A stretch of DNA of 64,000 bases from Candidatus Woesearchaeota archaeon (GCA_030154045.1 JASKKU010000001.1:1025-65024), one strand, 5' to 3'; numbered from the stretch's first letter, positions 31,490-61,496 are shown. Made by a program: numbers and translations. The notes: generated from the sequence alone by a model not told the origin.

Positions 31490-31609
31490 TCCCCGCCCCC
31501 GGACTTGAACCGGGAACCTTTCGGTTTCGGCTGTCTTCACGTCATCCAATTCCAAAGAACCGTCTTGAAGAATCTACAGCCGAACGCTCTACCATTGAGC
31601 TAGGCGGGG
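31490..31609 (-). tRNA. tRNA-Tyr (anticodon GTA) with a ~48-nt intron at the canonical 37/38 position
   Basis: Acceptor CCCCGCC/GGCGGGG (C1:G72, the archaeal/eukaryal Tyr identity pair), D-arm GCTCAATGGTAGAGC, anticodon stem TTCGG...CCGAA with loop CTGTAG|intron|A, T-arm CCCGGTTCAAGTCCGGG. Confidence 0.75.
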
Positions 31610-40559: not shown

Positions 40560-41357
40560 ATGAAAAGTTTCAAGAAAATTAAGCCTTTTAAGTTAGTCCT
40601 TTCATCATTCTTGATTTTATTGATCGGATTTTTAATCTGGACATCTTTGAATCATAATTTGAATTTTAAAAGGGAAAATATTGTAACCTTTGTACCAGTT
40701 ATTTCTAAATATATTTCAACTGCAAGCACATCTTACAAAAACCTTTCGTGCAAGGATTTCATAAACTTAAGCAATAAAAAGCTCATTAAAGAACATGCGT
40801 ACAATCGAACAGTGAAAGATTCAAAAACAGGTTCACTTTATAAGAACTACATTTTAACTAAAGTTCAAAAAGAGTATTTCAACGCCACCCCTTTTACAGT
40901 TTATACTTCTACACAATATGAGTATTTAAACAACAAAACAATATTTTGTGGAATTAAAAAGAAATATGTAATTAATAGCTCTGATAGAGAATCTTTAAAG
41001 AGATTATATCAGCTTTTCTTAAATAACTTCTCAAAGAAATTTGAACCTATTGAAAAGTTTCAATGTGAAAATTCAGATATTGAATTTATCCTTGGAAAAA
41101 GAGGAGAAATTTATGGGATTTTAGGCGTTTTTACAATAGATCCTGATGTGAAGGTATCTTATAACATAAATGATCCTAACGCGAGAATAGTTACTGCGAG
41201 CGAATGGTTCAAAGGAGAATTTGATGAGTATGTTCTTTTTACTGAATTTAAGGATATCTCGCCCTTGGATAGGTTCAGGGTTACACTAGAATACATCTTA
41301 GACCATGTTTGTTACCCCAAAGAACGGCAAAAGTTTTTTTATTCAAAGATAATTTAA
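40560..41357 (+). CDS. N-terminally anchored membrane/secreted hypothetical protein
   Basis: TM LVLSSFLILLIGFLIW; convergent with, and 4 nt overlapping, the stop of HXS-repeat gene 1. Confidence 0.3.
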   Translation: MKSFKKIKPFKLVLSSFLILLIGFLIWTSLNHNLNFKRENIVTFVPVISKYISTASTSYKNLSCKDFINLSNKKLIKEHAYNRTVKDSKTGSLYKNYILTKVQKEYFNATPFTVYTSTQYEYLNNKTIFCGIKKKYVINSSDRESLKRLYQLFLNNFSKKFEPIEKFQCENSDIEFILGKRGEIYGILGVFTIDPDVKVSYNINDPNARIVTASEWFKGEFDEYVLFTEFKDISPLDRFRVTLEYILDHVCYPKERQKFFYSKII

Positions 41358-41983
41358 TTAACACAACAAATAGGATAACTTGGATTAGAACAATCTTTTG
41401 CACCTACAGAAGTACCACCATAGCCACGACATATTGATACTGATTCAACGCACGCACCATTTTCTGACAAACAATTTGCGTGAGTACTATGGCTAGCATG
41501 ACTAGAATGACTACCATGACTTGAGTGACTGCCGTGACTTGAGTGACTGCCATGACTGCCGTGACTTGAGTGACTGCCATGACTGCCGTGACTTGAGTGA
41601 CTGCCATGACTACCATGAGTTGTATGACTAGCATGAGTAGCATGAGCGATATGACTTGAATGACTGCCGTGAGTTGCATGACTACTGTGACTTGAGTGAG
41701 TGCCGTGAGTGCCATGAGTGGCGTGACTGCTGTGACTACCATGACTACCATGAGTACCATGAGTAGCATGGCTGCTGTGACTCGCATGAGTGCCATGAGT
41801 ACCATGGGTAGCATGATGTGCGTGTTTTGCCGTAGCTGAATTAACTAAAACAGGGGCATTAAAAAAATTAAAGAACGCAGCTGCTGATAGAAAAACACCC
41901 GTACTTACCAAAGAATGCTTATTTGTCAAACCGTCTTCACTTTTAATAAAATACCTTATCCTTTTTTTAAATTTAGGAAACAT
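41354..41983 (-). CDS. His-Xaa-Ser/Thr tripeptide-repeat protein 1: conserved signal/leader-like N-terminus, 40 consecutive H-x-x repeats, C-terminal 6-Cys domain
   Basis: aa 54-173 are strictly periodic HAT/HGT/HGS/HSS... tripeptides; N-terminus MFPKFKKRIRYFIKSEDGLTNKHSL plus a hydrophobic stretch ending VNSATA; C-terminus CLSENGACVESVSICRGYGGTSVGAKDCSNPSYPICCVN. Confidence 0.8.
   Translation of the reverse strand: MFPKFKKRIRYFIKSEDGLTNKHSLVSTGVFLSAAAFFNFFNAPVLVNSATAKHAHHATHGTHGTHASHSSHATHGTHGSHGSHSSHATHGTHGTHSSHSSHATHGSHSSHIAHATHASHTTHGSHGSHSSHGSHGSHSSHGSHGSHSSHGSHSSHGSHSSHASHSTHANCLSENGACVESVSICRGYGGTSVGAKDCSNPSYPICCVN
41465..41824. repeat. tandem 9/27-bp DNA repeats encoding the HxS/T tripeptide array of gene 1
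   Basis: Near-perfect 27-mer gtgacttgagtgactgccatgactgcc repeated 3x around 41527-41610; the antisense ORF 41404..41814 in the track is an artefact of this repeat. Confidence 0.85.
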
Positions 41984-41985
41984 TT

Positions 41986-42420
41986 TTAGGTTATATTGGG
42001 CAGAGATGAACAGTGAGTGGCATGATTGCTGTGACTCGCATGGGTAGCGTGAGTGCCATGGGTAGCATGAGTACTATGACTACCATGACTGCCATGAGTA
42101 GCATGAGTAGCGTGGCTGCTGTGGCTTGAGTGAGTACCGTGAGTAGCATGACTGCTGTGGCTACCGTGAGCAAGATGGCTGGCATGACTAGAATGACTGC
42201 CGTGAGTTTGATGAGAAAAATGACTAGAATGACTAGAATGACTAGAATGACTACTATGACTACTATGACTACCATGCGCCACTGCTAATTTTGAAGTTAT
42301 AATAGAACTTACAGCAAAAGAAGTAAAGAATACTCCAGCACTAATTAAAGAATGCTTATTACTCAACCCTTCTTCACTTTTTATGAAATACATTATCCTC
42401 TTTTTAAACTTTGGAAACAT
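41986..42420 (-). CDS. His-Xaa-Ser/Thr tripeptide-repeat protein 2 (paralog): same conserved N-terminus, 30 repeats, short SLPNIT tail
   Basis: N-terminus MFPKFKKRIMYFIKSEEGLSNKHSL is nearly identical to gene 1 at both protein and DNA level; aa 49-138 are HGS/HSS/HAT... tripeptides; 2-nt spacing to gene 1 and 9 nt to the upstream radical-SAM gene. Confidence 0.8.
   Translation of the reverse strand: MFPKFKKRIMYFIKSEEGLSNKHSLISAGVFFTSFAVSSIITSKLAVAHGSHSSHSSHSSHSSHSSHFSHQTHGSHSSHASHLAHGSHSSHATHGTHSSHSSHATHATHGSHGSHSTHATHGTHATHASHSNHATHCSSLPNIT
42007..42276. repeat. tandem 9-bp-unit DNA repeats encoding the tripeptide array of gene 2
   Basis: catgac/tagtcat-type 9-mers repeated; the antisense ORF 41991..42275 is an artefact. 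Confidence 0.8.
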
Positions 42421-42428
42421 GCAAACAC

Positions 42429-43931
42429 CTATTTTACAGGCTTAAGTTCATCATCACCAAAAATCTTAAGATATTCTCTATGCACGCCTTCACAAATATC
42501 AAAATACTTACATTCTCTACATTTTAAAGTTTTTGCTTTTAAATTATTCTTGCGAGTTGTGTTATACTCCTTATCCAATCCATCAGGATTGGCCATAAAT
42601 CTTTTTTCAGCCATATGTAATTCAACCACATGATTTTCATAACCCTGCATATAACACAAAGGAATTGCTTCAACATTTAACATATAATTATTCTCAATTG
42701 CTAAATCCAGAGCTTGATGAACATATGGAACAACATCTCTAATTCTTGGAATTAAAAGGTCAACATGTTTCAACGCATTACCTTCTGGACTAATAAACAT
42801 AAATTCAGAAAACATTCTCGGTAAATCTTTGTTTAAATTAATAAGGAACCTTACAATATCTGTAAGATGCTTATAATTAAGCTTGTTAATAACAGTAATT
42901 GTAGTATAAAGCACCTCAGGATACTTTTTCGCGTTTTCAAAAGCTTTCATTAATTGCTTGTAGTTGCCTTTAACGCTGGAAAGAGTATCTACAATCTTTT
43001 CATCAACATCGTCAAATGAAAAAGCTATATGATTCGCTCCGGATTCAACAAGTTTATCAAAAAAAGGTTGATAAGACAGCATGCGACCATTTGTAATAAC
43101 CTGCACTTCATAATAACCCATATCTCTAGCTGCCCTCGTTATGAAAAAGATATCCTTTCTTATCGTTGGCTCGCCACCTGTAAAGCTTACTTTCATTGCT
43201 CCAGCCTTCCTTCCGATAAACAAATCATTTAATATATCTTTTGTTGATTTTAATTTCTCTCCAAGATGACCTACGCAACAATACAAACAATTGTTGTTGC
43301 ATAAATAACCAGTTCTTATATCTATCCTAGGCATCTCTTTTCCAGAATTAGGAATCTTCTTCAAATCATAATACTTCTTATAATAAATGTAAAACCCTTT
43401 ACAAAATTTCTTTAGTTCACAACCATTGCATTTTTCTAAGTAAATGTGTTCTTTACCAGGATCATTATCAGAATCAAATTGTCCCTCCCTATTAATGAAC
43501 TTCTGATCAAATTCGTAGTTTCTCGCTTTTAAATCTGAGACATACTTAAAGAATTTCTTATCAATAAAACAGAGAGGAACCCCATCAACTCTAACCTCAA
43601 AACCCTTAGAATCACAAAACTCTAAAGTCTTATTCAAAACGTCTTGAAAAAGTTCAAGAGGAGTAGCTAACGGAACAACCTCATCAATATTTTGTGAGAA
43701 GCGAACAAGATTTGTTATCTGTAAATAAAAGTTATCAGATATTGAAAAAACTCTTCTAGCAACATCAAACAGTTCAGAATAATTCAAACTGTTCACAACA
43801 AAAACAACCCCGGTTTTAATTTTGGTCTTAGCGAGAGCCTCCAAAGCATCAAACTTCTTCTCTAACAATTCAACAGAGGATTTTGATAAAAACGAAAACA
43901 GGAACTTATCCCGGGTAGGAACATGAACCAA
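42429..43931 (-). CDS. two-module radical-SAM protein: N-terminal degenerate half-domain fused to a complete radical-SAM/twitch-like module
   Basis: Module 1 has PLCFID and CNGCELKKFCKG but no CxxxCxxC. Module 2 has CNNNCLYCC, GGEPT, IPLCYMQGY, CRECKYFDICEG and the tail LKIFGDDELKPVK. Confidence 0.8.
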   Translation of the reverse strand: MVHVPTRDKFLFSFLSKSSVELLEKKFDALEALAKTKIKTGVVFVVNSLNYSELFDVARRVFSISDNFYLQITNLVRFSQNIDEVVPLATPLELFQDVLNKTLEFCDSKGFEVRVDGVPLCFIDKKFFKYVSDLKARNYEFDQKFINREGQFDSDNDPGKEHIYLEKCNGCELKKFCKGFYIYYKKYYDLKKIPNSGKEMPRIDIRTGYLCNNNCLYCCVGHLGEKLKSTKDILNDLFIGRKAGAMKVSFTGGEPTIRKDIFFITRAARDMGYYEVQVITNGRMLSYQPFFDKLVESGANHIAFSFDDVDEKIVDTLSSVKGNYKQLMKAFENAKKYPEVLYTTITVINKLNYKHLTDIVRFLINLNKDLPRMFSEFMFISPEGNALKHVDLLIPRIRDVVPYVHQALDLAIENNYMLNVEAIPLCYMQGYENHVVELHMAEKRFMANPDGLDKEYNTTRKNNLKAKTLKCRECKYFDICEGVHREYLKIFGDDELKPVK

Positions 43932-44212
43932 AAGAGAGTCTAAGCCTGCAGATTCCAGTTTTTTCGCAACCTCTTCCGTAATTAAAGTGCCGTTTGTTTG
44001 AAGATGAACCTTAGCTTTTTTCTTGGCTTCTTTAATAACTTCAAAGATATCTGGCCTAAGCAGAGGTTCTCCCCCTGTAATTATAATCTGTTCAACTGAA
44101 TCGAAAGAATTTATTTTTTCAACTAAGTCTTCAAAAGAAGGTTCTCTTAACCCCCTCTTACGAGTACAATAAATACAATTTTGGTTGCAATCACTCGTTA
44201 CCTGTAATAAAC

Positions 44213-45232
44213 CTATTTTAATTCTCTCACCTCTGAATAAACTTCAAGATATTGTTTCCAAAAACCAGGGCATTTGTTCTTAAAAGGACAAACTTTGCAT
44301 TTTTTAACCCTTTCCCTAAACTGATTTAAGGTATAAAGCATATTCTTCTCAGGCTTTGAAAGATAGCATAAGGGAATGTTCTTTGTAAAAACCTTGTTCT
44401 GCTTATCAAACTCAAAACACTTATAAAAGTACTCCTTTAAATCTTCAAACTTTGGTGCAAGTATAGAATATCTTAATTGAGCATCACCGCCAGGCTCAAC
44501 ATAACTTAACTGAATCTCATCCACAAGATTATAAAAAAGTTTTACCATCTCAAAGATTTCTTCAAAATTCTGTTTTAAGATCACAAAGTTTATTTTAAGA
44601 ATTAAATCATCGTATTTTAAATCGTAGAGGTTCTTTAAACCTTGTACGGCTTGTTTAAAACTCCGAGGAGTTCGAGTAATTGCATCATGAGTTCTTTCAT
44701 TAGAACCAAGAATAGTAAAAGCGATCATCAAAGGCAACTTCAATTCAACAAGCCTTTTAGCAAACTCTTTGTAAGCAAACATACGACCGTTTGTTGGGAA
44801 GAAGATAGGAAAGTTGTACTTTTTAAGATGTTCAAGAATTTGAAAAATATCTCTACGCAAAGTAGGCTCTGCACCGTGTAAAACTATTAGTTTTTCTTTT
44901 CCAGTTAACAAAGAATCAAAGCTTGAAATAATCTCTTCAAAACTCGGGTCATCAACTTTGTTCCTAGATGATTCAAAACACATAATGCAATTATTATTGC
45001 ATTTTTTTGTTATAAAGAACTTCTTTATACCTGAAAGATTCAAATTAATTGCGCCAGGTTCACAAACATTAACGCACTTCATACAGCCTAAACAAATGTC
45101 TGCATCAGGAGCAAACACCTTGCCGTTTTCAAATTTAAACAGTTGTTGTGGGCAGACATCAATACATTTTAAACATGAATTACACTTTTTTTCGTCCACT
45201 TCAATCCGTGAAAGAGAATTTATTGCTTTCAT
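44213..45232 (-). CDS. 2x[4Fe-4S] ferredoxin domain fused to a radical-SAM/twitch-like enzyme
   Basis: N-terminal CNSCLKCIDVCP and CLGCMKCVNVCEP; radical-SAM CNNNCIMC, GAEPT, IPLCYLS, C-terminal CKVCPFKNKCPGFW. Confidence 0.8.
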   Translation of the reverse strand: MKAINSLSRIEVDEKKCNSCLKCIDVCPQQLFKFENGKVFAPDADICLGCMKCVNVCEPGAINLNLSGIKKFFITKKCNNNCIMCFESSRNKVDDPSFEEIISSFDSLLTGKEKLIVLHGAEPTLRRDIFQILEHLKKYNFPIFFPTNGRMFAYKEFAKRLVELKLPLMIAFTILGSNERTHDAITRTPRSFKQAVQGLKNLYDLKYDDLILKINFVILKQNFEEIFEMVKLFYNLVDEIQLSYVEPGGDAQLRYSILAPKFEDLKEYFYKCFEFDKQNKVFTKNIPLCYLSKPEKNMLYTLNQFRERVKKCKVCPFKNKCPGFWKQYLEVYSEVRELK

Positions 45233-46098
45233 TTTTTAACATCTTTAACAGGTTTAAAGTCTGAATAATTTTTGAATATCAAAAGATTTTGTTTATAGTA
45301 ACCATTACAATTCTGCTTTAAAACACAGGAATTGCATTCTGACAACGGGAAAACATACCTATCATCATGAATAAAGTCTTCTCCAATAACGTGCTTTCTA
45401 AATTCATCTTCAAAAATACACGGGGGTATATTAAAAACAAAAACACGATCATCAACTAAAGCATCTTCTATATGGGGTTTAATTTGTGAGAGAGAAACAT
45501 AAATCAGATCTTTATTATTAAGACTTCTATTCAAGTAGAGAGGATAATCTAAATAAACATTTTTCGTGGGAAAAAAATTCCTAAGAAACAATACTGTTTC
45601 CTTGAGTTGTTTATAATTTTGCTTAAGAATAACAATCATAAAATAAATATTCAAATCAGCTTCTTTTATAAATTCTAAAGCCTTAACAACTTGATAAAAA
45701 CTACCTTTAACCTTTGTGATTTCATCAAACGTTTCAGGATCTTTTGAATGAAAAGTTGTTCTGATTATATCAATATGTTCTTTGACTTTTTCAAAAAACG
45801 GCTTAACCGAAAGCATTCTGATATTTGACTGCAAACTAATTCGTGTATTCGGATAATTTCTTCGTAAAAATTTCAGGAAATCCAAGAAATAAGGCACTAT
45901 TGTTGGTTCTCCACCGGTTATTTGTATCTCCACAGCAGATTTTGGAATTTGTTTTAAAACCTCTTTTTTTACAAAGGAATATTCAAAAAAAGGTTCATAA
46001 TTTGTTTCAGTATGACAATAAACGCAATGATTATTGCATTTTGTTGTTAAGATAATTGCAAACTTGTTTCCAATAGACTTATGGATCTCAAAAGGCAT
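45229..46098 (-). CDS. radical-SAM/twitch-like enzyme (paralog)
   Basis: CNNHCVYC, GGEPT, IPPCIFED, C-terminal CNSCVLKQNCNGYY; 4-nt overlap with the downstream gene. Confidence 0.8.
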   Translation of the reverse strand: MPFEIHKSIGNKFAIILTTKCNNHCVYCHTETNYEPFFEYSFVKKEVLKQIPKSAVEIQITGGEPTIVPYFLDFLKFLRRNYPNTRISLQSNIRMLSVKPFFEKVKEHIDIIRTTFHSKDPETFDEITKVKGSFYQVVKALEFIKEADLNIYFMIVILKQNYKQLKETVLFLRNFFPTKNVYLDYPLYLNRSLNNKDLIYVSLSQIKPHIEDALVDDRVFVFNIPPCIFEDEFRKHVIGEDFIHDDRYVFPLSECNSCVLKQNCNGYYKQNLLIFKNYSDFKPVKDVKK

Positions 46099-46219
46099 GC
46101 TTTTAATAAAAGAAAGTTGTTTTTATATATCTTATTATTTTTGTGAAATCACTAATTTAACATCAAAGCATTAAAATAAAAAAAGCTTATAAAAACCTAA
46201 GTGTTATCTAATAGCTAGA

Positions 46220-46783
46220 GTGAACAAACTTTTATTTCAACTAATCTTGTATTTTATAATTTACTTATGTGGATCTTTTCCATCAGCTTATGTTGTAACA
46301 AAAATTTTTGCAAAAAAAGACATTCTAAAAATTGGTTCTGGTAATGTCGGGGCGCGAAATGTTTACGAGAATGTTAGTAAAAAATTAGGAATTATCACCT
46401 TTGCCTTAGACTTCAGCAAAGCAGTTGTAGCTTTTATTATATACTCAAAATACAATCTGTTTTTCACCTTGTCTCTATTAATGCTGGTCTTGGGACATAA
46501 TTTCTCGATCTATTTGAAATTTAAAGGAGGCAAAGGACTCGCGAGTACACTTACGTTCTTATTACTAAAAAATCCACTTCTCGCTATTTTTTCTATAATA
46601 ATCTATCTCATCACAAACAAAACTATCAAAAATATGGCTCTAAGCGTAATGTTGACAATTGCTCTATTATTAATTTTAACCAACATTTTTATTGAAAGAG
46701 ATATATTTATAAGCCTACTCCTTTGGATGGCTCTAACAATAAAATGGCTCCCGAACAAGAGGAACTTAGCAAACAAGAACTAA
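46220..46783 (+). CDS. plsY: PlsY-family acyl-phosphate:glycerol-3-phosphate acyltransferase
   Basis: YLCGSFPSA, GSGNVGARNV and LGHNFSIYLKFKGGKGLAS match the PlsY signatures YLxGSIxSA, GSGNPGATNV, LGHxxPxFxxFKGGKGVAT. Confidence 0.75.
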   Translation: MNKLLFQLILYFIIYLCGSFPSAYVVTKIFAKKDILKIGSGNVGARNVYENVSKKLGIITFALDFSKAVVAFIIYSKYNLFFTLSLLMLVLGHNFSIYLKFKGGKGLASTLTFLLLKNPLLAIFSIIIYLITNKTIKNMALSVMLTIALLLILTNIFIERDIFISLLLWMALTIKWLPNKRNLANKN

Positions 46784-47925
46784 TTAATAAGATCAAAGCA
46801 ATTATACCTGAATTCAAAGAGTATGTTAACTTAATAAATAGTATTAATGTATTTCCAATAGCTGACAAAGATACAGGCACGAACATTTATCTCACTCTCA
46901 AAAAATTTCTAGAATTAAATCGCTTTGAAGGTTTCGGAAATTCAGGCAATATTCTTGAGATCTTTGGGAACTCTCTCTTAAACAATCTTGGAGAAAAATT
47001 TACAATAAAACAGTTAACATCCGCAATTAAATCAGCTATATCTGAAGTTGAAAAATCTATTTTAAACCTTAAAGAGGGAACAATCTATACTGCTATGAAA
47101 AGACTATACGCTTCTTTAATTCAAAACAAAAACTTAAACGAAATAATCATAGGCTTATATCAACAAGTATTAGAAAGTAAAGAATATATGAAAGATTACA
47201 CTAACCAAGATGTTGTTGATTCTGGTGCTTTAGGATTTCTTATTTTTCTATGGTTGTTTAACAACAAAAAACCAGAGATAAACTTTAAAGATTTACAAAA
47301 ACCAATTGACAAAAAAGATTTCGAAGTTTATTGTATAAACATAACTTGTACTGATTATGAAGAAGAAAAGATAAAGACTCTTGATTCGGTAATTATTCAC
47401 AAGACACATAATGAGTATAAAATTCACTTTCATTCTCCCGATCTAAAATCAGCTCTTGAATTTAATAATCCAAAAATATTAAAAATAACTTTGCCAGAGA
47501 GTAATCAAAAAAAGACAAAAATATGTTATTTTTGTGAAAATGAAGAGGAAAAAGAGTTCTTTAGTAATTTGGGCTTAGAAACCGTAAGTTCAATTGAAGA
47601 AATAATTCTAAAAACAAACCCTTTACAAACCTTATATATAATCCCTGAAAGAAAAAAAGAGATTTTAGACTTGATCAATTTAGATGCAATAATTATTCAA
47701 AAAAGTGAAGAAGTATTAGCCTTATTAGAGGTTATCAGTTTAAAAACAGAATTTGACAAAGATGAGATAAATAACAAATTAAAAAAATATGCTTTAGTTG
47801 AAAATCCAAGTGAAGAACATGAAGTTATTTTCAAAATAAGTCGAAAAGTTAAAGAGGATTCTGTTTATTTCCCTTTCTTACATTGCAAAGAAAAGTTTTT
47901 GGTCAAAAAGAAAGATGTCTCATAG
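46723..47925 (+). CDS. DAK2-domain protein (fatty-acid kinase FakA-like / DhaL-like)
   Basis: INVFPIADKDTGTNIYLTL and FGNSGNILEIFGNS match the DAK2 signatures NVYPVPDGDTGTNM and RGNSGVILSQ; the start may be the second Met (MAPEQ, ~46744). Confidence 0.6.
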   Translation: MDGSNNKMAPEQEELSKQELINKIKAIIPEFKEYVNLINSINVFPIADKDTGTNIYLTLKKFLELNRFEGFGNSGNILEIFGNSLLNNLGEKFTIKQLTSAIKSAISEVEKSILNLKEGTIYTAMKRLYASLIQNKNLNEIIIGLYQQVLESKEYMKDYTNQDVVDSGALGFLIFLWLFNNKKPEINFKDLQKPIDKKDFEVYCINITCTDYEEEKIKTLDSVIIHKTHNEYKIHFHSPDLKSALEFNNPKILKITLPESNQKKTKICYFCENEEEKEFFSNLGLETVSSIEEIILKTNPLQTLYIIPERKKEILDLINLDAIIIQKSEEVLALLEVISLKTEFDKDEINNKLKKYALVENPSEEHEVIFKISRKVKEDSVYFPFLHCKEKFLVKKKDVS

Positions 47926-48988
47926 ATTTAAAAAATAAATAAAGAATAAAAAACAAGAAAGTAAAGATTAAAAAAGATTTTACATATTTAAGAATATAAG
48001 ACACCAGAGAAACATCTTCAAAAGCCTTAGAAAAAATATAAGCCTTAGAAAAATTTCCACCAGGATACTGAGAATATATCCTTTCGGCATATATATAGAA
48101 AAGTTGCCTTTTGGAAAACAGATCACTAAAAAAAATTTTAGAGATCTTTATTAAAGGCAAGATTCTGAAATCTTTAGAATAAATATAAAGCCAGCGAATA
48201 TTTAATTTAGCTTTTTCATAACAGTTATCTTTAAGTTGTTTGGGTACTTTAATCCCTAAAAGATTTTCTAAACGATAAATCTTAAAAGAGCAATCATAAA
48301 AATCATCATGAACCAAAAAGAATTCTAAATGTGAAGAAATATTTTTAAGAAGTGAATCTTTAAAGCTACAGTTAATCAAACTACAATAATAGGCAAAGTG
48401 TACATTTGAAACGAAATCAAAATTATGGGGTGTAGAAATATTCTTTTCAAAAACTTCAAAAAGACCGTATGTTTTATTTAAATTAAAAGAATCAATAAAA
48501 TTTGCATTAAAATTAAAGTCAGAAAAATTGTGTTTGAGATCCTGAAAAATAAAAGTATATGTTAAAGCTGTGTCATCTAAATCAGCGCCATATAATGAAT
48601 AAAGAGGAGTATAAGTGAAAGCAATTGGAATATTATCTTGCTTTAGATTGATTCTTAATTTTAAATAATTAAAAAGCGCTTCTTTAAAAGACTGAGGCAT
48701 AATGTTTTTAAATTCTCCGATAGAGCAGATTAAAGGAAAGAAAATATTCTCATCGAGATATTTATATGAATCCGTAAACTCTGATCTAGAAAGATAAGCA
48801 TTCTCAAGTTTTGAAATTGATAATGTTGATTGCTTTGAAGCATACGTTCTCAAAAAGAATCCATCAATAACCTCAGATTTAAACTCTTGATAAAAATAAA
48901 AAAACTGAACTAAGAAAAAAAGAGTGAGAACTAAAAAGAAAACGAACAAAAAACAAGAGCTCCTTTCTAATAACTTTAGTTTATTCAT
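47903..48988 (-). CDS. N-terminally anchored membrane protein of unknown function
   Basis: TM FLFVFFLVLTLFFLVQFFYF then an Asn/Phe/Tyr-rich domain. Confidence 0.3.
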   Translation of the reverse strand: MNKLKLLERSSCFLFVFFLVLTLFFLVQFFYFYQEFKSEVIDGFFLRTYASKQSTLSISKLENAYLSRSEFTDSYKYLDENIFFPLICSIGEFKNIMPQSFKEALFNYLKLRINLKQDNIPIAFTYTPLYSLYGADLDDTALTYTFIFQDLKHNFSDFNFNANFIDSFNLNKTYGLFEVFEKNISTPHNFDFVSNVHFAYYCSLINCSFKDSLLKNISSHLEFFLVHDDFYDCSFKIYRLENLLGIKVPKQLKDNCYEKAKLNIRWLYIYSKDFRILPLIKISKIFFSDLFSKRQLFYIYAERIYSQYPGGNFSKAYIFSKAFEDVSLVSYILKYVKSFLIFTFLFFILYLFFKSMRHLSF

Positions 48989-49844: not shown

Positions 49845-49881
49845 AATAAAAACAAAGTAATATTTAAAAAGTATTTAATCT

Positions 49882-51610: not shown

Positions 51611-51613
51611 GTT

Positions 51614-52525: not shown

Positions 52526-52567
52526 GTTTTTAGATACCAGAAATTAACATAAAAATCTTTCCAAAAA

Positions 52568-54448: not shown

Positions 54449-55368
54449 AAAACTTTATTCCTTTTTTTAGGTTCTTCAAATATTGGATAGAGTTCTTCTA
54501 ACCCAAACATCTCAGCATACTCTTTCCAAACACCAGGACAAACATTATTAAGAACACACAACTCGCAATCTTTTGATTTTTTCTTCAGTTCGGAAAACTG
54601 TTTTTTGAGAAGGTTATATTTGCCTGTTTGAGAATTGATATATTCTTGCTGATGATATCTTTCAGTATTTAACCGAATATACTCTGAAGAATATTCCTTA
54701 AATTCAAGCATATAACATAAAGGCACACCTTCAACCTCATAGATAATGTCCTCTTGTTTATCCAGAAAAGTTAAAACTTTATACAAATGGTATTGAACTT
54801 TATAAAGTCGTGGAACCAATTCAGGATGTTGTTGTGTTCTACCGTTTGGCCTGATAAATCCAAAATAAAATTTCACCTTACCAACATTTGATAGAATAAA
54901 TTTTACGAAATTAAGCAAATCTTTATAATTCAACTCGTTGATAACATGAGAAATTGCAACAAAAAGTCTTGCATCAACTAATCGTTTAAGATTTTTGATA
55001 ATAGTATCAAAATTATCAACGCCTGAGAGATATTTATGAACTTCTCGTTTGTGAGAATGCAATGAAGCCATAATCTGTGTAACATTCGTTGAAATCAAAG
55101 TTTCAAAGATCTCATCAGTTATGTTTGAAACATTTGTTTGTAGTTCAATATTCTTTCCTAAAGAATGAGCGAATTTAACTAATTCAATAAAATCTTTTCT
55201 TATCGTTGGTTCGCCACCTGTAAATACAACTGTGTGTGCATCTGTTTCTCTGATGATTTTTTTAACATGTTCAGTTGAGAGCGTTGCCTCGTTAGTGCCA
55301 TAAACAGTACAAAATTTGCACAGGTGGTTGCATTCGTGTCCTAAGCGAATATTCAACACTGAAGTCAT
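54430..55368 (-). CDS. radical-SAM/twitch-like enzyme (paralog)
   Basis: CNHLCKFC, GGEPT, VPLCYML, CELCVLNNVCPGVW, tail FGLEELYP. Confidence 0.8.
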   Translation of the reverse strand: MTSVLNIRLGHECNHLCKFCTVYGTNEATLSTEHVKKIIRETDAHTVVFTGGEPTIRKDFIELVKFAHSLGKNIELQTNVSNITDEIFETLISTNVTQIMASLHSHKREVHKYLSGVDNFDTIIKNLKRLVDARLFVAISHVINELNYKDLLNFVKFILSNVGKVKFYFGFIRPNGRTQQHPELVPRLYKVQYHLYKVLTFLDKQEDIIYEVEGVPLCYMLEFKEYSSEYIRLNTERYHQQEYINSQTGKYNLLKKQFSELKKKSKDCELCVLNNVCPGVWKEYAEMFGLEELYPIFEEPKKRNKVFWWNSK

Positions 55369-55392
55369 TTATGATGTAGATAAAATATATCT

Positions 55393-57045
55393 TTAAATGT
55401 TTTTTTGAAAATTTGGCGATTTGGTTAATTTAATCGCACCGTAAGGACAAACTTCGTGACAAGTATAGCAATGAATACACTTATCCTCAATAACTTTTAA
55501 TCGCTTGCCAATTTCGTCAAAAACAATAGCGCCAACAGGACATGAATTAAAACAAGTTTTACAAAGAGTACATTTGTGTTGGTCGATTGAAACTTTATAT
55601 ATATAGGCCTTCCCAAACTCTGCTTCATTTTTAATAGGATTCAGAAGATTAAATAGAGAATGTTTTTTAAAATTGGGATGAATAATCTCAACTACATCTT
55701 TGAAATCGCCAACAATTTGTATATTATCAGTATAACCTTCGCCCAGATACTTCTCTGTTGCAAACTTTACAGTAGGTAAATGCTCAGGCTCATAACCCAT
55801 AACCTTACTAACAACAGTATCAACAGCAACCCCGTCTTTTCCAAAGAATAACAATCCAACATTTACTGGGTCGCCATAAGAAGGTCCTTCGTCTCCTTCC
55901 ATTCCAATAATGCCATCAACAACATGCAAAGCAAACTTATCTTTTAGTCTTGAATAAACATCTACAACACCTTTAGCAAAATTAAATCTATCAACAAAAG
56001 AATGAATATATTTTCTTTCGTCTGGATGAATTAAACCAAAACAGGATTTTACACAACAGGTGAAAAAAGTAAGTCCGTGTGTTTTCATCTTAGGAACATT
56101 AATGATTAAATCAACCTTGTCCAAAAAAGAAAGAAAATCTGTTTTCTCAACTAAATAATAGTTTGGAATCCTCTTAACAGTATAACCATCTTTGCTCATA
56201 TCAACAATCTTAACATTTTCACTCAAAGCAACATCCTTCATTCCTGTAACTGTCATAAGTCTATCAAACGCCTGATAATTTGTACCTGCTGCCAAATCTG
56301 AGATGTAAATTTCATTTGTAACTTGCTTTAAAACTCTAACAATTGCTTTGATAACAACAGGGTGTGTTGTTGCAACTTTTTCCGGTGGCAAAGGCTCAGC
56401 AAGGTTTGGTTTTATCAATACCTTTGAACCTTTTGGAACTAATTTTTCAACACCGCCAAAAGAATCAAACCCTTTCTTCACTGCTTTAAGAATTGATTCA
56501 AAATCATTATAATCCTTAAATTTTCCAAAGACAGCAACTTTTTCTTTTAGACCAAATCCTCTCTTAGCCTTGATCAAAATCTCGTCTTTCGGTTTAAAAA
56601 TAGGATACACCTGATTCTCAAATCTTAAATCTGCACCTGGACAGAAAGATCTTACTGCACAGCTATCGCATGCAAGGAACTTTTTCTTAATAATTCTTTC
56701 AGGATTTTTTAGTTTGATTAACCCTTCTTCAAACAACAACTTAAGTTTAAGATCATAACTCAACCACGGAAAATCTTGAAGATAACATAAAGGTACATCC
56801 TTTACTTGAAGAACAACATCATTTTTCTTAGCCCACCTAATTAACCTGTTCAATTTAAGCTCGTTTGTATAAATTTCTCCAGAACATGAAACCAAAACAA
56901 ACTTCTTTTGCAAAGTTTTAATCTTAGAAGTGATTTCCTCAAAAGTTTCCTTACATATGTCAACCTCAATAAAATCTTGATTAGGGAGCGCTTCAACACT
57001 GCTATTTGTTTGTAAATTCCCTGATTCAAAGACAAACAGTTTCAT
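55393..57045 (-). CDS. fusion protein: degenerate radical-SAM C-terminal half-domain + DUF362 + 2x[4Fe-4S] ferredoxin
   Basis: N-terminus VPLCYLQDF...CDSCAVRSFCPG; middle HGLTFFTCCVKSCFGLIHPDERKY (DUF362-like); C-terminus CTLCKTCFNSCP and CIHCYTCHEVCP. Confidence 0.6.
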   Translation of the reverse strand: MKLFVFESGNLQTNSSVEALPNQDFIEVDICKETFEEITSKIKTLQKKFVLVSCSGEIYTNELKLNRLIRWAKKNDVVLQVKDVPLCYLQDFPWLSYDLKLKLLFEEGLIKLKNPERIIKKKFLACDSCAVRSFCPGADLRFENQVYPIFKPKDEILIKAKRGFGLKEKVAVFGKFKDYNDFESILKAVKKGFDSFGGVEKLVPKGSKVLIKPNLAEPLPPEKVATTHPVVIKAIVRVLKQVTNEIYISDLAAGTNYQAFDRLMTVTGMKDVALSENVKIVDMSKDGYTVKRIPNYYLVEKTDFLSFLDKVDLIINVPKMKTHGLTFFTCCVKSCFGLIHPDERKYIHSFVDRFNFAKGVVDVYSRLKDKFALHVVDGIIGMEGDEGPSYGDPVNVGLLFFGKDGVAVDTVVSKVMGYEPEHLPTVKFATEKYLGEGYTDNIQIVGDFKDVVEIIHPNFKKHSLFNLLNPIKNEAEFGKAYIYKVSIDQHKCTLCKTCFNSCPVGAIVFDEIGKRLKVIEDKCIHCYTCHEVCPYGAIKLTKSPNFQKNI

Positions 57046-57075
57046 TTTTAATACCTAAAAAATGAGAAAATAAGC

Positions 57076-58125
57076 TCAACTTAGTGTTGAAATATAAGTC
57101 TTTACAGATTTTCCATCATTCACCATAAGAACTGCTTTATCTATGTTTTTACATAAAGCACGTGAAGAATTATACCCAAAATGCACCTTGAAACTATTAT
57201 CAACAAAAGAATCTGTATTAACAATCCCTGGTTTAACACAATCTCCACTTAACGTTGGTGTATTGGATTCAAAATCAAGGGTATAATCAAATAACTTTTC
57301 ATCATTAAAATAGAGGGACAAGCCCAAAGTCTTAATATCTTCTTGTTTTATAGGAGAAAAAGAAATTACATACTCATCTGTTCCCTGTTGTGACAAACTA
57401 ATTGAACTAATCGGACTCTCGTTTATAAAAGAAAAGACAATCTTATTGTCAAGAACACTCGCAGATCCTTGATTAAGCTCTGAGCCTTGTAATTGGTTCG
57501 GTTTTAAAGCTAAGGAACCTTGGAATGAAATAAAAAAAAGCGAGATAACCAGGACTAAAATAATAACATTAAAAATCCAAAGCAGAGTAACTTGTTTATA
57601 TAACCTTTTTATATCATGGTTTTGTTTTTCGCGTTCAATTTTGCTTTCACCCATAATTTTTAAATTTCGTAAGGAAGAATTATCAACTTGTCCTTTGAAA
57701 TATTTTTCTAAAAGTTTAATATTTGACAAATAAAGACCACTTATGCTAAACTCATCCTCTTCATCCTCTTCGTCTAGAAAAGAAATTTTTATCGAAAAAG
57801 TATCAAAGAATTTATCAAAAAAAGTCTGATAAACCTTTATTGATTTGATTTTATTTTTAGGAATAATTGCCCTAAAAACATGTAACGTCTCAACAACAAA
57901 TTCATTTTTATTGTTAAGATAAATTCTTTGAAAGAAATAAAAACCGTTAAAAATCCACAAGATAAGCAAAACGGAAAATGACCACAAGATTGTATTAAAT
58001 AAAACATCAGTAGGGTGCCTCAAATTCATTAAAAGGAAAGGTAGAACTAGTAAAATTGCCAGTTTAAATGAAAAACTAAAAACCGAACCCAAAGTCGCAG
58101 GCCAATATTTTCTTTTTAATTCCAT
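57076..58125 (-). CDS. membrane protein (2-3 TM) with an acidic DEEDEEDE patch and a C-terminal extracytoplasmic domain
   Basis: TM helices LAILLVLPFLL, ILWSFSVLLILWIF, LLWIFNVIILVLVISLFFI. Confidence 0.3.
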   Translation of the reverse strand: MELKRKYWPATLGSVFSFSFKLAILLVLPFLLMNLRHPTDVLFNTILWSFSVLLILWIFNGFYFFQRIYLNNKNEFVVETLHVFRAIIPKNKIKSIKVYQTFFDKFFDTFSIKISFLDEEDEEDEFSISGLYLSNIKLLEKYFKGQVDNSSLRNLKIMGESKIEREKQNHDIKRLYKQVTLLWIFNVIILVLVISLFFISFQGSLALKPNQLQGSELNQGSASVLDNKIVFSFINESPISSISLSQQGTDEYVISFSPIKQEDIKTLGLSLYFNDEKLFDYTLDFESNTPTLSGDCVKPGIVNTDSFVDNSFKVHFGYNSSRALCKNIDKAVLMVNDGKSVKTYISTLS

Positions 58126-58172
58126 TCAAACCACCGTTGATCTTTATTTGCAAAAATATAAAAATATCTATT

Positions 58173-59138
58173 TTAATCTTTCGGTATTATTGGAAACTCC
58201 TTCTCATTATTCAAGATTTCCTGCTTTGATTTGATGATTTCTCCTGGAACAGGTTTGAACTCCTCAATACCCATTTTTTCAGGGTATTCTTTCCAAGGAC
58301 CTTCACAAACAAACCTAAATCTACAAGTCTTGCATTGAGGAAACAATTTTTTTCCTTCTCTTTTTCGAACTTCTTCAAAATTATCTATCCAAAAATTAGG
58401 CTCTTTAATCATCGTGTCAGGCATATAAAGTTCAGCAGCATACCTTTCGTAACCTTTAAGCATACAAAAAGGTACGGCTTCCACCATTACACCGATACCA
58501 TTTAAGATTCCAATCTTCAAACCTCTCTTAATATAAGGCATAGCTAAAGACATCACCGGCATCATTTTCTCATAGTATTTTGCGGCATTGCCTAAAGCAT
58601 GCACAAACGCAAACTGAAACTGGTCTACATGCAATTTAACGAACAATTTTGCAAGTTGAGGAGTATATCTATAATTTGGTTTAACAACCACAGAATTCAC
58701 AACAACTCTTAAACCTAGTTTTTTAGCGTTTATAATTCCTTTAACAGTCTGAGACCAAGAACCCGGAGCCCTTGTTAGATATTCGTGAATTTCTGGTTTA
58801 TAACCATGCAATGAGGGACCAAACTCATTTGCACCTGCAGCAACCATCCTCTTAGCAAAATCCATGTTTGCAAACATTCGTCCATTTGTCTGAAGCTGAA
58901 TACTCTCAAAACCAAGTTCTTTAGCAAATGCAACCAACTCAACAGCATCCTTTCTAATAGTAAATTCACCACCTGTAAAAACAACACCATTTGCACCCTT
59001 TTTTTTCGCTGTAATCAACGCATCTTTTATTTCCTGTGTGGTCCGATTCCCATAATGCCTATTCTGTGCCTGAACGCAGAAATAACAATTATTGTTGCAA
59101 AGGTATCCAGTTTTTATATCAACCCGATATAAATTCAT
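58173..59138 (-). CDS. radical-SAM/twitch-like enzyme (paralog)
   Basis: CNNNCYFC, GGEFT, VPFCMLKGY, CKTCRFRFVCEGPW, tail MGIEEFKPV. Confidence 0.8.
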   Translation of the reverse strand: MNLYRVDIKTGYLCNNNCYFCVQAQNRHYGNRTTQEIKDALITAKKKGANGVVFTGGEFTIRKDAVELVAFAKELGFESIQLQTNGRMFANMDFAKRMVAAGANEFGPSLHGYKPEIHEYLTRAPGSWSQTVKGIINAKKLGLRVVVNSVVVKPNYRYTPQLAKLFVKLHVDQFQFAFVHALGNAAKYYEKMMPVMSLAMPYIKRGLKIGILNGIGVMVEAVPFCMLKGYERYAAELYMPDTMIKEPNFWIDNFEEVRKREGKKLFPQCKTCRFRFVCEGPWKEYPEKMGIEEFKPVPGEIIKSKQEILNNEKEFPIIPKD

Positions 59139-60671
59139 CTACTCACCATATTTTGATTCGAACTCTTTAACCAAAGCATCAAACTCCTCCTCTGAAGGAA
59201 TCTTCTCAGGAATCTTATTATCTAAAGAATCTCCCCATTTTCTTAGATAAGGGGCATCCTCAGGAGAATGTAACAACAAATCAAAGAGATAATCAATCAT
59301 TGCTTTATGGATCTTGCACCTGTGCGTTGAAGGAAGGTTTACAACTAGAGAACCATGCATTTTATAATTTTCCACAGGACAAATACCACAATACGGATAC
59401 CATGGACAATTATCGCAGTTAAAAGATAACAAAGATGAGTTTGAAACCATTGTTTTACATAGCTTATTTCTCGTTAGATCATAGAAAGTGTCTTCATATA
59501 CGTTTCCAATCTTAAACTCTTCATCCATTGTCCTTGCTTCATCACAAGTATAAATAGAACCATCGTAATCATAAAGTGCTTGACCTATGAAAGCGCCACA
59601 AGGTCTTTCCAATTCAGCAAAACCCGGGTCTCTGTTATTTACAATCTTCATAAGAATGTACGACGCCAAGTTTTCCTGGGCACGAATACCCTTCTTGTTC
59701 AAAAACAATAAAAATCGAATCACTCTTTTCCAAGCTTCTATAAATTCCTCTGGCTCATAAAACAGAGATTCCCAACCCTTAACAGCGAATCCAAAGTAAG
59801 TGACATATTTGAATCTAAAAATTGGCAAACCATGAAGCACATACTCTTTTATGATATCTTTATATCTATTCAAAGAATACTTTGTAATAACCGGAATCGC
59901 AAATGTTCGATTATAACCTTTTTCCAAACGATAAAACTTGATCTTTCGAGAAACATCTTCGTAAGAAGACTTTTTTGGATCGTGAGTAAATTTTCTGTGA
60001 AAATCATGCAAATCTTTTGGGCCATCCAAAGAAAAACACAATCCAATCTTGTTTTTTCTTATAAACTCAAACTTTTCATCATCTAGCAAATTTCCATTAG
60101 TTACTATTGCAAAATCTAAAATCTTTTTATGCTTTTTATTCAACTCTTTAGCATACTCAACAACAAATTTAATGATATCGAACTTTAATAATGGTTCTCC
60201 GCCAGTAAATTCAATAACCATGCTTTTAGCTGGTGATTGAAAGATGAAATCAACAGTTTTTTTTGCAGTCTCTTCAGTCATATCAAAGCCCTGCTCATCA
60301 ACGTTTCTTCTTAAAGCATAACAATACTTGCAAGTAAAATTGCATCTCAAGGTTGGAACCAATATCTGCAAACTTGTACCATTACCTACATTCCAGTTGT
60401 AATTCCTAAAGCTCTCAAGAATATCCCTGGCATTCTCTGGGGTCCTGATAATGTGATTTTCTTCTAACTTTTTAAACAAAACTTCATCCATATCGTCAAA
60501 AAGATATTTTTTATATTCCTCTTCCTTTAAAAGAACCCATTTGCCATAATCATTAATTAATAATTTCTCTTTTCTTTCAGGATAATTCTTAATACGAACA
60601 TTTAACCTTGTATAATCCCTATTTAATTTGAACTTACTCATTTTAAAACCTTTTAAAATAAAAACAAACAA
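59139..60671 (-). CDS. radical-SAM enzyme with a full SPASM domain and a ~95-aa N-terminal extension (candidate RRE/peptide-binding domain)
   Basis: CNFTCKYC, GGEPL, SPASM cysteines CGAF...TCDE...LCKT...CDNCPWYPYCGIC; N-terminal extension precedes the radical-SAM core. Confidence 0.75.
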   Translation of the reverse strand: MFVFILKGFKMSKFKLNRDYTRLNVRIKNYPERKEKLLINDYGKWVLLKEEEYKKYLFDDMDEVLFKKLEENHIIRTPENARDILESFRNYNWNVGNGTSLQILVPTLRCNFTCKYCYALRRNVDEQGFDMTEETAKKTVDFIFQSPAKSMVIEFTGGEPLLKFDIIKFVVEYAKELNKKHKKILDFAIVTNGNLLDDEKFEFIRKNKIGLCFSLDGPKDLHDFHRKFTHDPKKSSYEDVSRKIKFYRLEKGYNRTFAIPVITKYSLNRYKDIIKEYVLHGLPIFRFKYVTYFGFAVKGWESLFYEPEEFIEAWKRVIRFLLFLNKKGIRAQENLASYILMKIVNNRDPGFAELERPCGAFIGQALYDYDGSIYTCDEARTMDEEFKIGNVYEDTFYDLTRNKLCKTMVSNSSLLSFNCDNCPWYPYCGICPVENYKMHGSLVVNLPSTHRCKIHKAMIDYLFDLLLHSPEDAPYLRKWGDSLDNKIPEKIPSEEEFDALVKEFESKYGE

Positions 60672-60699
60672 TGAAATTTTCTAAGTATTAACTAAAAAA

Positions 60700-60954
60700 T
60701 CATTTAATATCAGCTGCACGCATCAACCCTAAAAGATAATTAAAAAACTCACCGTAAGCAATCTCAACATTTGCTGAAGAATCTTTCGGCTCAATATATA
60801 CTTTGAAATTAGTTTGATCTTCCCCATATATTGCGACCCAACAGCTCTCTTTAAACTCATTTAAAACTTCAACAACTAACTCAAAAGGATAAACAGAATC
60901 TTTAAAGGTTACAACAACCGTATTGTCTTTAAAAGTTCTATGCAACATAATCAC
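60700..60954 (-). CDS. small (84 aa) hypothetical protein, candidate accessory/chaperone of the cluster
   Basis: ORF with 4-nt overlap to its upstream neighbour; no motif recognised. Confidence 0.3.
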   Translation of the reverse strand: MIMLHRTFKDNTVVVTFKDSVYPFELVVEVLNEFKESCWVAIYGEDQTNFKVYIEPKDSSANVEIAYGEFFNYLLGLMRAADIK

Positions 60955-61496
60955 TCACCAGAGCTTTTCCCATACTTTTCATCCCAAGGTATCGCTATAC
61001 CTTCAGGATCATCAAAATCAAAACTATCAACAATCTCATCAACGTCAATACCATCATTTATAGTGGATGACTCACAATTGTCTCCATTCTCAGTAGTATC
61101 ACAAACTTCACAAGAACTTCTATTATCTGTATCAAAAGATTCTGCCATCTCTACATCTTCAGGTTGACCAAACAATGCTGCCCTCGTGATTACCTCCCGA
61201 ACACCTTTTGTCCTCGCAGACTGTATCTCGTAAAAAGCATAATTAATAAGTTGATTATTAAATTCCTTTGCAAGCTCCAAGAGAGATGTTTGCGAATTGC
61301 TGTCTTGTAATCTAACTTCCACAATCATTTCTTTTTCAGGATCACCATCTATCACAAAATATCCCTTATCCATTAAATCATACGCTGCAGATACAACTAT
61401 CGATAAAGGAAATATTTTAGAGTTTACCTTAACCAAGGCAAAATCAGCAAATAAATCAATATTTGCAAAAGATTGTAGAGGTTTCTCATCACTCAT
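60951..61496 (-). CDS. acidic 181-aa protein, first gene of the radical-SAM array
   Basis: Globular N-terminal half, then a highly acidic Asp/Glu/Ser tail containing CEVCDTTENGDNC. Confidence 0.35.
   Translation of the reverse strand: MSDEKPLQSFANIDLFADFALVKVNSKIFPLSIVVSAAYDLMDKGYFVIDGDPEKEMIVEVRLQDSNSQTSLLELAKEFNNQLINYAFYEIQSARTKGVREVITRAALFGQPEDVEMAESFDTDNRSSCEVCDTTENGDNCESSTINDGIDVDEIVDSFDFDDPEGIAIPWDEKYGKSSGE

Follow-up and report, generated by a model that had tools for sequence, protein, structure and literature searches.

A probable archaeal, expanded His-Xaa-Ser radical-SAM protein-maturation system in a Woesearchaeota-type DPANN genome

The window analysed here, a stretch of 64,000 nucleotides (nt) of genomic DNA from a Candidatus Woesearchaeota archaeon (GCA_030154045.1, JASKKU010000001.1:1025-65024), carries a locus that probably specifies an archaeal, expanded His-Xaa-Ser (HXS) system for protein maturation by radical S-adenosylmethionine (radical-SAM) enzymes, a reading to which we assign a probability of roughly 0.8. 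The system takes about 14.6 kb of the window and is comprised, in minus-strand order, of the genes for HxsD, an HxsD-like protein, HxsB, the radical-SAM protein R7, a membrane protein, a DUF362-ferredoxin protein, the radical-SAM proteins R6, R5 and R4, then, beyond a block of other genes, R3, R2 and R1, and finally the repeat proteins HxsA1 and HxsA2 (Table 1). Its assignment to the HXS family rests on HxsB, which scores above the cutoff of its model, on the HxsD and HxsD-like matches, on HxsA2, which passes the HxsA4 cutoff, and on HxsC or HxsC4 being the best model elsewhere; the expanded HXS system proposed from an earlier reading of the sequence alone (the sequence-only reading) is thereby upheld. 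A bacterial HXS system was reportedly predicted by Haft and Basu in 2011. The sequence-only reading took such systems to be known in silico only and their chemistry to be unknown; the former no longer holds, as the HXS system of E. coli is an antiphage system that blocks phage DNA entry, with HxsB, HxsC and HxsD each indispensable for N-terminal processing, for export and for a +8 Da change in the last of five repeats (PMC13128918, Nat Commun 2026), while the chemistry has yet to be worked out, the +8 Da change being single and confined to one repeat out of five and hence difficult to isolate.

HxsB matches TIGR03978 over its full length with 414.9 bits (E 4e-124), above the cutoff of 370, and is 31.5% identical to the annotated HxsB of Aeromonas over 444 amino acids (aa). 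It carries CxxxCxxC, the CxxCx5CxxxC SPASM motif and, according to Pfam, the sole SPASM domain among the ten radical-SAM domains of the locus; the open reading frame (ORF) tool put its start at a TTG at 60671. HxsD scores 48.0 bits (E 1.2e-12) against TIGR03976, 2 bits short of the cutoff of 50, and is a member of the HxsD family, Pfam PF27806 being recorded for the identical protein; HxsD was found in 233 representative clusters at E<=1e-10. A gene for an HxsD-like protein directly after HxsD is also present in L007, L010, L013, L014, L020, L029, L099 and L101 (L-numbers designate comparison loci from other genomes, and P-numbers comparison proteins). Both small proteins are acidic, with isoelectric points of 4.05 (HxsD) and 4.67 (HxsD-like), as the sequence-only reading had described them.

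R7, which directly follows HxsB, is the most conserved component of the system. It has more than 1300 homologs, the best 120 of which are 53-89% identical to it and derive mostly from DPANN metagenome-assembled genomes (MAGs), and its residues C14/18/21 and C225/269/272/278 are invariant across 48 homologs. An AlphaFold2 model built from these 48 homologs reached a pLDDT of 95.8. The nearest solved folds are BlsE, GDGT-MAS and SkfB, with an overlap confined to the core (TM-score 0.55-0.65, 14-25% identity) and no close solved structure among the structural neighbours; since they include BlsE and SkfB, the label 'twitch-type' is reasonable.

The two putative substrates are encoded at the downstream end of the array, HxsA1 starting 8 nt past the stop codon of the final radical-SAM gene and HxsA2 2 nt past HxsA1. 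HxsA1 (144 aa) contains 30 consecutive in-phase H-x-x triplets (aa 49-138) and HxsA2 (209 aa) contains 39 (aa 54-170); the sequence-only reading had the coordinates of these two tandem genes and the count of 30 right, and was one too high with 40 for HxsA2. The third position of the triplet is Ser or Thr in 28 of 30 cases in HxsA1 and in 36 of 39 in HxsA2, and the second is mostly Gly, Ser or Ala. Such triplet runs cannot have arisen by chance. At the DNA level the tracts are imperfect tandem repeats of 9, 27 and 45 nt, and no second tract of the H-x-S/T kind occurs in the window. HxsA2 passes the HxsA4 model (NF038313) with 73.3 bits against a cutoff of 55; the canonical HxsA model matches neither protein. 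The two share a conserved, Lys-rich leader (MFPKFKKRIxYFIKSExGLxNKHSL) followed by a hydrophobic segment ending in A-x-A. The leader of HxsA1 aligns end to end with HxsA3, and the same precursor design (FPxxKKxIxxFLxSEEG, a hydrophobic segment and A-x-A|H) is common to Clostridia proteins named HxsA3 by NCBI (P0143, P0156). The mature tract of HxsA1 has no K, R, D or E, and the mature HxsA1 and HxsA2 have between none and three K/R; the computed charge of the archaeal substrates is about +2 at pH 7 and +22 to +30 at pH 5.5.

At its C-terminus HxsA2 has a 40-aa module containing six Cys (41354-41476; NCLSENGACVESVSICRGYGGTSVGAKDCSNPSYPICCVN), which HxsA1 does not have; short Cys-containing tails also end the archaeal HxsA relatives P0121, P0122 and P0127. 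This module may be an anchoring knot or an extra site for thioether-type chemistry by the SPASM enzyme. Collagen-like matches of HxsA2 (NCBIfam Scl, Pfam Collagen) were set aside, as they fall far under cutoff and are due to the period-3 Gly pattern. The idea that one paralogous enzyme is devoted to each triplet type (HGS, HSS, HAT and others) was likewise rejected, because in L025/L032 and L027 nearly all triplets are HGS and yet four to six radical-SAM genes are present.

Nine HxsC-like domains are distributed over seven genes (one each in R7, R6, R4, R3 and R2, two each in R5 and R1), which with HxsB makes ten radical-SAM domains and agrees with the sequence-only estimate of at least nine; its description of a single paralogous family is correct for the nine HxsC-like domains, HxsB being of a separate, SPASM family. 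For every radical-SAM domain other than HxsB the top NCBIfam model is HxsC or HxsC4, with homology to HxsC at E values down to 1e-35. The best HxsC4 scores (NF038332, cutoff 500) are 164.8 bits for R5, summed over three stretches, and 158.5 bits for R7, the best single-domain protein. Models for MoaA, QueE, AhbD/NirJ, anSME and Tes gave 20-103 bits against cutoffs of 231-650 and ranked under HxsC or HxsC4 for every domain; membership in such characterised families, by which the sequence-only reading was to stand or fall, was thus not found. All nine domains have an intact CxxxCxxC, GGEP(T/L) and four C-terminal Cys (one upstream Cys and CxxCx5C), that is, three plus four cluster Cys, and the architecture CxxxCxxC, P[LH]C, CxxCx5C is that of the annotated Aeromonas HxsC. 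Pfam SPASM did not match any of the nine, and their four-Cys site is twitch-like. The F-G-x-x-E-L-K-P tail that had been ascribed to the family is recognisable in five of the nine domains and not in the rest.

Alignment of the radical-SAM domains, a check suggested at the outset, showed the paralogs of the window to be 22-33% identical to one another, against 69-90% for their orthologs in L010, the locus of a sister species (a GTDB MAG; HxsB 82% identical to that of the window). Between the orthologs dN is 0.07-0.21 and synonymous sites are saturated, the N-terminal extension of R1 included. Judged by these values the paralogs are ancient, each under purifying selection. The membrane protein, with a dN of 0.64, is the only fast-evolving component; its orthologs occupy the same position in L001, L007 and L010. 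The DUF362-ferredoxin protein, which together with the membrane proteins had been correctly recognised from the sequence, starts with the C-terminal part of a tenth HxsC-like piece, which keeps PLCY and CxxCx5CxG and has no CxxxCxxC; the full fusion of a radical-SAM domain to DUF362 is present in L008 (4814-6622).

The first domain of R1 (about 43932-44207) lies upstream of the TTG (43931) picked by the ORF tool, in a frame that stays open to 44243, and gene callers overlook it. This stretch encodes CNQNCIYC and GGEPL, is 78% identical to its counterpart in L010 and accounts for the second Pfam Radical_SAM stretch; the open frame, intact motif and conservation led us to reject the view that the N-terminal half of R1 is a degenerate domain. 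No ATG, GTG or TTG start is available for it, the window having TTA where L010 has TTG. Relative to R2, R1 is shifted to the -1 frame both in the window and in L010 (21080-21105), where it follows TTA-AAA/G-TAG, a sequence that would permit a -1 slip or re-initiation. The R2/R1 junction (44205-44243, minus strand) is identical in three assemblies, and an assembly error was dismissed because two independent assemblies are 100% identical. This arrangement suggests a possible -1 frameshift fusion with R2, a non-canonical re-initiation or a very recent silencing.

The locus is not unique: clusters of HXS genes with multiple radical-SAM enzymes are found repeatedly among DPANN archaea and in some bacteria, and models for HxsA3, HxsA4, HxsC4 and HxsD-like variants exist in NCBIfam. 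Two scans were made, one of a genome collection with very narrow patterns, which returned 9 loci, and one of metagenomes with generic patterns, which gave 80 loci, only about 20 of them genuine HxsB loci. The gene-neighbourhood comparison that had been called for found, in multiple DPANN loci, HXS-repeat genes beside HxsB, HxsD and HxsC-like genes; in L008, L013, L025/L032, L100, L101, L015 and L027, repeat genes with the same leader adjoin HxsB, HxsD and several HxsC-like genes, and clusters with multiple radical-SAM genes are L008/L011, L010, L013, L014, L100, L101, L105, L015, L025/L032 and L027. Of these, L015 (from a Polyangiaceae MAG, its HxsA passing the HxsA4 cutoff) and L027 are bacterial. 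When the substrate served as anchor, HxsD and at least four radical-SAM genes were found in each of L105 (from a Diapherotrites MAG) and L106; with the enzyme as anchor the loci are graded, from a minimal D-D'-B-C set (L099, L020) through L007, which adds a membrane protein and DUF362, to the large arrays L008, L013, L100 and L101. The substrate of L101, with 64 triplets, is longer than those of the window, which together with L010 has the most HxsC-like domains per cluster among the loci compared. B12-binding radical-SAM enzymes, methyltransferases, PMT_2 or glycosyltransferases are further components of other loci and are missing from the window.

Among the neighbours, genes for Peptidase_A24 prepilin-peptidase-like, PMT_2 mannosyltransferase-like and glycosyltransferase proteins recur by the DPANN HXS clusters (Table 1), none of them being adjacent in the window, and B12-binding radical-SAM enzymes and methyltransferases likewise recur there. 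For a Ser/Thr-rich product such neighbours hint at possible glycosylation or surface processing. Giant predicted surface proteins of 2530, 2205 and 1212 aa adjoin three unrelated HXS clusters (L106, 10544-18136; L008, 13546-20163; L105, 1803-5441), two of the proteins matching fn3 or Big_3_3 faintly.

The host is a Woesearchaeota-type DPANN archaeon. Its archaeal nature, stated by the sequence-only reading, is borne out by an archaeal signal recognition particle (SRP) RNA (137.7 bits), an intron-containing tRNA, RpoA', a split RpoB and Mre11/HerA in the window, and the nearest named RpoA' proteins are those of Candidatus Woesearchaeota and Nanoarchaeota (62-70% identity). The locus is surrounded by housekeeping genes (S17e, SRP RNA, tRNAs, MCM, TBP) and lies outside any defence island; PADLOC gave nothing but generic radical-SAM similarity to viperins. 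The array of L010 is gene-for-gene collinear with that of the window from HxsD through R1, where it runs to the contig end, and the flanks (MCM, TBP, SAMP2, ferredoxin, AsnC regulator, S17e) are collinear as well. Collinearity of both array and housekeeping flanks points to vertical inheritance of the locus at this depth.

The array had been described as co-directional and about 19 kb long. The system genes are co-directional, but the array is not continuous: it is split by a block of six unrelated genes (46099-51613, 5.5 kb) with the lowest G+C content of the window (0.27-0.28). In L010 the block is missing and R4 is directly followed by R3. Since the sister species keeps an uninterrupted array, the 5.5-kb lipid-gene block is a lineage-specific insertion, seen only in the lineage of the window among the loci compared; its absence from the collinear array and its differing G+C content rule out the lipid genes as members of the system. 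The block resembles a bacterial-type fatty-acid salvage and phospholipid module: its PlsY-like protein scores 101 bits, under cutoff, and its DegV/FakB protein 173.6 bits, over cutoff. The soluble-domain motifs of its protein with six transmembrane (TM) segments we take to be Lnt-like. TATA-like elements spotted by eye 5' of HxsD and R3 were given no weight, because the DNA has about 30% G+C.

Table 1. Coordinates of the HXS locus and interrupting block in the window, and of surface or processing genes beside related clusters (HMM, hidden Markov model).
Feature	Coordinates	Strand	Evidence
HxsD, 181 aa: HxsD domain (aa 25-108) and 72-aa acidic tail (23 D/E)	60951..61496	-	TIGR03976, PF27806
Second small HxsD-like protein, ~82-84 aa	60700..60954	-	NF038315 HxsD_rel 32.3 bits, under cutoff 41
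HxsB radical-SAM/SPASM maturase, 500 aa from ATG	59139..60641	-	TIGR03978; Pfam Radical_SAM and SPASM
R7, HxsC-type radical-SAM directly after HxsB (positional HxsC)	58173..59138	-	HxsC4 158.5 and HxsC 101.2 bits, both under cutoff
Membrane protein, 349 aa, 3 TM-like segments	57076..58125	-	No Pfam/NCBIfam match
DUF362 with C-terminal 2x[4Fe-4S] ferredoxin and N-terminal HxsC-like remnant	55393..57045	-	PF04015 150 bits; Fer4 families
R6, HxsC-like radical-SAM	54430..55368	-	Best NCBIfam HxsC4 81.6 bits; L010 ortholog 76% identical, dN 0.164
R5, two fused HxsC-like radical-SAM domains, 621 aa	52568..54433	-	HxsC 229.6 bits over two stretches; two CxxxCxxC; L010 ortholog 73%
R4, HxsC-like radical-SAM	51614..52525	-	HxsC 121.7 bits, best single-domain score; L010 ortholog 81%
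Interrupting block, outside the system: PlsY-like, Dak2/FakA-like, membrane protein, DegV, 6-TM protein, DUF116	46099..51613	both	NCBIfam and Pfam
R3, HxsC-like radical-SAM	45229..46098	-	HxsC 115.1 bits; L010 ortholog 69%
R2, N-terminal 2x[4Fe-4S] ferredoxin and HxsC-like radical-SAM	44213..45232	-	HxsC 112.2 bits; Fer4 and Radical_SAM; L010 ortholog 73%
R1, two HxsC-like radical-SAM domains	42429..44216	-	Two Radical_SAM stretches, 162.7 bits; dN 0.154
HxsA1 precursor: leader (aa 1-24), hydrophobic segment (aa 24-42), A-V-A|H site, 30 H-x-S/T triplets	41986..42420	-	HMM, repeats
HxsA2 precursor: same leader, 39 triplets, C-terminal 40-aa 6-Cys domain	41354..41983	-	HMM, repeats
Surface/processing neighbours in other loci	L008 20199-21014; L099 6103-7254; L100 600-2285, 12700-13794		
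Surface/processing neighbours, continued	L101 4443-5633, 18505-20121; L105 13753-14670, 16824-17633, 19975-20465		

Elsewhere in the window, a 120-nt tRNA match (31490-31609, minus strand, 56.3 bits) that ARAGORN missed lies beside tRNA-Asp and tRNA-Lys and is consistent with an intron-containing archaeal tRNA. A full-length bacterial-type DnaK (11163-13043, minus strand, 920 bits) is encoded in this DPANN genome. A subtilase gene (35055-36335) is located about 5 kb from the HxsA genes, and no link between it and the system was found.

Several observations weigh against the HXS assignment or limit it. The HxsC cutoff of 267.9 (TIGR03977) is reached by none of the HxsC-like domains, the best single domain scoring 121.7; the domains are therefore homologs of HxsC and not equivalogs. 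HxsA1 stays under the cutoffs of both HxsA3 (51.8 bits, cutoff 65) and HxsA4 (41.3 bits, cutoff 55). The archaeal HxsA proteins have neither a peptidoglycan-binding domain, which neither Pfam nor NCBIfam detected in HxsA1 or HxsA2, nor Arg-rich repeats, while the Aeromonas HxsA has HRSHRSHSS; as these features of the bacterial effector are missing, the downstream role may differ. In L009 and L100 there are R7-like genes (53-55% identity) with neither HxsB nor HxsD visible, and no HXS gene was found within 10 kb of HxsB at L007, L020, L029 and L099. Some lineages may do without HxsB and HxsD or encode them at another place. The R7-type gene of L100 (Aenigmarchaeota GCA_011773405.1, 1-18924) stands beside HXS-repeat genes and six more HxsC-like genes, and that of L009 (CP070801, 10001-10930) with only a glycosyltransferase and a B12 radical-SAM gene. 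Finally, a role of the DUF362 protein as electron donor is a guess, the literature assigning no function to DUF362.

Homology and gene association are observed, and every biochemical step of the following scheme we infer from them. HxsA1 and HxsA2 are predicted to be made as precursors with a Lys-rich leader, an export segment ending in A-x-A and the repeats, as their sequence indicates. In the cytoplasm, recognition of the leader would fall to HxsB and R7 along with both HxsD-family proteins, by analogy with E. coli, where HxsC binds HxsD and HxsB, HxsC and HxsD are all needed (PMC13128918); for the His-rich tract, the HxsD acidic tail may serve as a holder. Radical chemistry on the His, Ser and Thr units would be the task of HxsB and the nine HxsC-like domains, the eight domains beyond the core pair of HxsB and R7 possibly adding further or different steps, and electrons for the radical-SAM clusters could, as the fusions suggest, come from the DUF362-2x[4Fe-4S] protein and from the R2 ferredoxin domain. 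The modified protein would then be exported and cut after A-x-A. The product would be a surface or extracellular poly(His-x-Ser/Thr) polymer, heavily modified, with almost no charge at pH 7 but polycationic once the pH falls below about 6, which could block virus entry as in E. coli, bind metals or have an envelope function. We consider the antiviral role and the envelope or metal-binding roles about equally likely.

An antiviral use of the same machinery, in which exported, modified HxsA in the envelope blocks viral DNA entry, is possible, though our confidence in it is low: the only experimentally characterised HXS system, that of E. coli, works in this sense, and the window shares with it HxsB and HxsD homology and an export-type HxsA N-terminus, besides HxsA4 homology. 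The archaeal repeats, however, have no Arg or Lys and a computed charge of only about +2 at pH 7, so that the proposed electrostatic binding of DNA would be weaker; a peptidoglycan-binding domain is lacking, as is peptidoglycan in archaea. A syntenic housekeeping position, vertically inherited between two species and away from any defence island, is also not in favour of an immune role, nor is the PADLOC result, limited to generic viperin-type radical-SAM similarity. In the survey made with the E. coli study, moreover, 99.7% of HXS systems were in Pseudomonadota and 99.8% consisted of four genes (PMC13128918).

The same machinery may instead produce a putative structural or metal-binding surface polymer, for envelope or host contact or for scavenging Ni, Zn, Cu or Fe, and not an immune effector, an option for which our confidence is similarly low. 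It would fit the 30 and 40 His residues, spaced at a strict period of 3 among small residues and without charged ones, the Cys-rich C-terminal module of HxsA2, the housekeeping-like, syntenic position, and the wide distribution and conservation of the components in DPANN archaea, as seen in the best 120 homologs of R7 and the HxsD clusters. Genomes of this lineage are near 1 Mb, and about 14.6 kb is a large share for a small-genome lineage to spend on one system. PMT_2, glycosyltransferases, a prepilin peptidase and giant surface proteins recurring by DPANN HXS clusters point the same way. Some relatives, on the other hand, have a minimal set of four genes (L099) or no HXS gene nearby, and a His-rich composition alone leaves the need for radical-SAM modification unexplained. 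A further step, which we regard as rather doubtful, would be a vertically inherited assembly line of ten domains turning about 70 units into a densely cross-linked or heterocyclised polymer that is core to envelope or host contact, its paralogs performing distinct steps new to enzymology.

That some or all accessory HxsC-like paralogs act on lipids, glycans or cofactors, as Tes and GDGT-MAS do, and the cluster is a mixed one, is unlikely. Secondary matches to Tes, MoaA, NirJ and AhbD reach 40-100 bits, GDGT-MAS is the second-best structural neighbour of R7, the R7-like gene of L009 sits beside a glycosyltransferase without Hxs genes, and a lipid block lies inside the array of the window. HxsC or HxsC4 is nevertheless the top model for every domain, with other families far under their cutoffs; the nine domains have the HxsC-specific C-terminal motif architecture, the paralogs accompany HxsA, HxsB and HxsD in many lineages, and the lipid block is a late insertion not found in L010. 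A chance neighbourhood of a low-complexity His/Ser ORF and unrelated radical-SAM genes, for which nothing speaks but the general abundance of such genes in anaerobic archaea, is effectively refuted by the comparative data, namely the matches to the curated HxsA4, HxsB and HxsD models, the leader common to named HxsA3 proteins, and the association in more than eight independent archaeal and bacterial loci, whether anchored on enzyme or substrate.

As an expanded HXS maturation system, the locus extends the range of HXS from Pseudomonadota to DPANN archaea. With 30-39 near-identical units, its substrates should give strong signals in mass spectrometry and nuclear magnetic resonance if repeatedly modified; the nine diverged HxsC-type domains form a natural panel for the assignment of steps, and a candidate electron donor is built in. 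The conservation, synteny and cost of the system in a very small genome hint at a role beyond accessory immunity, and should the product prove to be a polymer of the envelope or of host contact, this would have implications for surface construction in these episymbiotic archaea.

Literature searches, within the library covered, found no account of HXS in archaea, of the HxsA3, HxsA4, HxsC4 and HxsD-like variants or of their multi-enzyme clusters, and nothing relevant on radical-SAM or His-rich systems in DPANN or Woesearchaeota. Compared with known enzymes, R7 shares with BlsE and SkfB a radical-SAM core and one C-terminal four-Cys site, and PapB, the SCIFF maturase and anSME are the next-best families for HxsB, far under cutoff; the models of twitch enzymes and SPASM peptide maturases in general (BlsE, SkfB, PapB, SCIFF maturase, anSME, SuiB) all fall far under cutoff. 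With the variant models already existing in NCBIfam, HxsA3 (NF038309), HxsA4 (NF038313), HxsC4 (NF038332) and HxsD-like (NF038315), the likeness is closer: HxsA2 passes HxsA4, the leader of HxsA1 is that of HxsA3 and the small protein matches HxsD-like, whereas HxsA1, the HxsC-like domains and the HxsD-like protein all remain under the model cutoffs.

The canonical HXS system (TIGR03976-03979), ordered HxsD-HxsB-HxsC-HxsA (PMC13128918), has in common with the window an HxsB over cutoff, a protein of the HxsD family, an HxsC homolog after HxsB, an in-phase H-x-S substrate with an export-type N-terminus, and, in outline, the D-B-C...A order. This order is kept as D, D-like, B, C-type ... A, A, with about 11 further genes and the 5.5-kb insertion between the C-type and the A genes. 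The window differs from the canonical system in its DPANN instead of Pseudomonadota host; in nine HxsC-like domains instead of one, without the N-terminal extension of about 110 aa of bacterial HxsC; in a pair of HxsD-family proteins, of which one bears a long acidic tail, and an added DUF362-ferredoxin and membrane protein; in two substrates with 30 and 39 uncharged repeats, where the bacterial ones have five or six that are Arg-rich; and in a syntenic housekeeping setting, where canonical systems are found on plasmids or islands.

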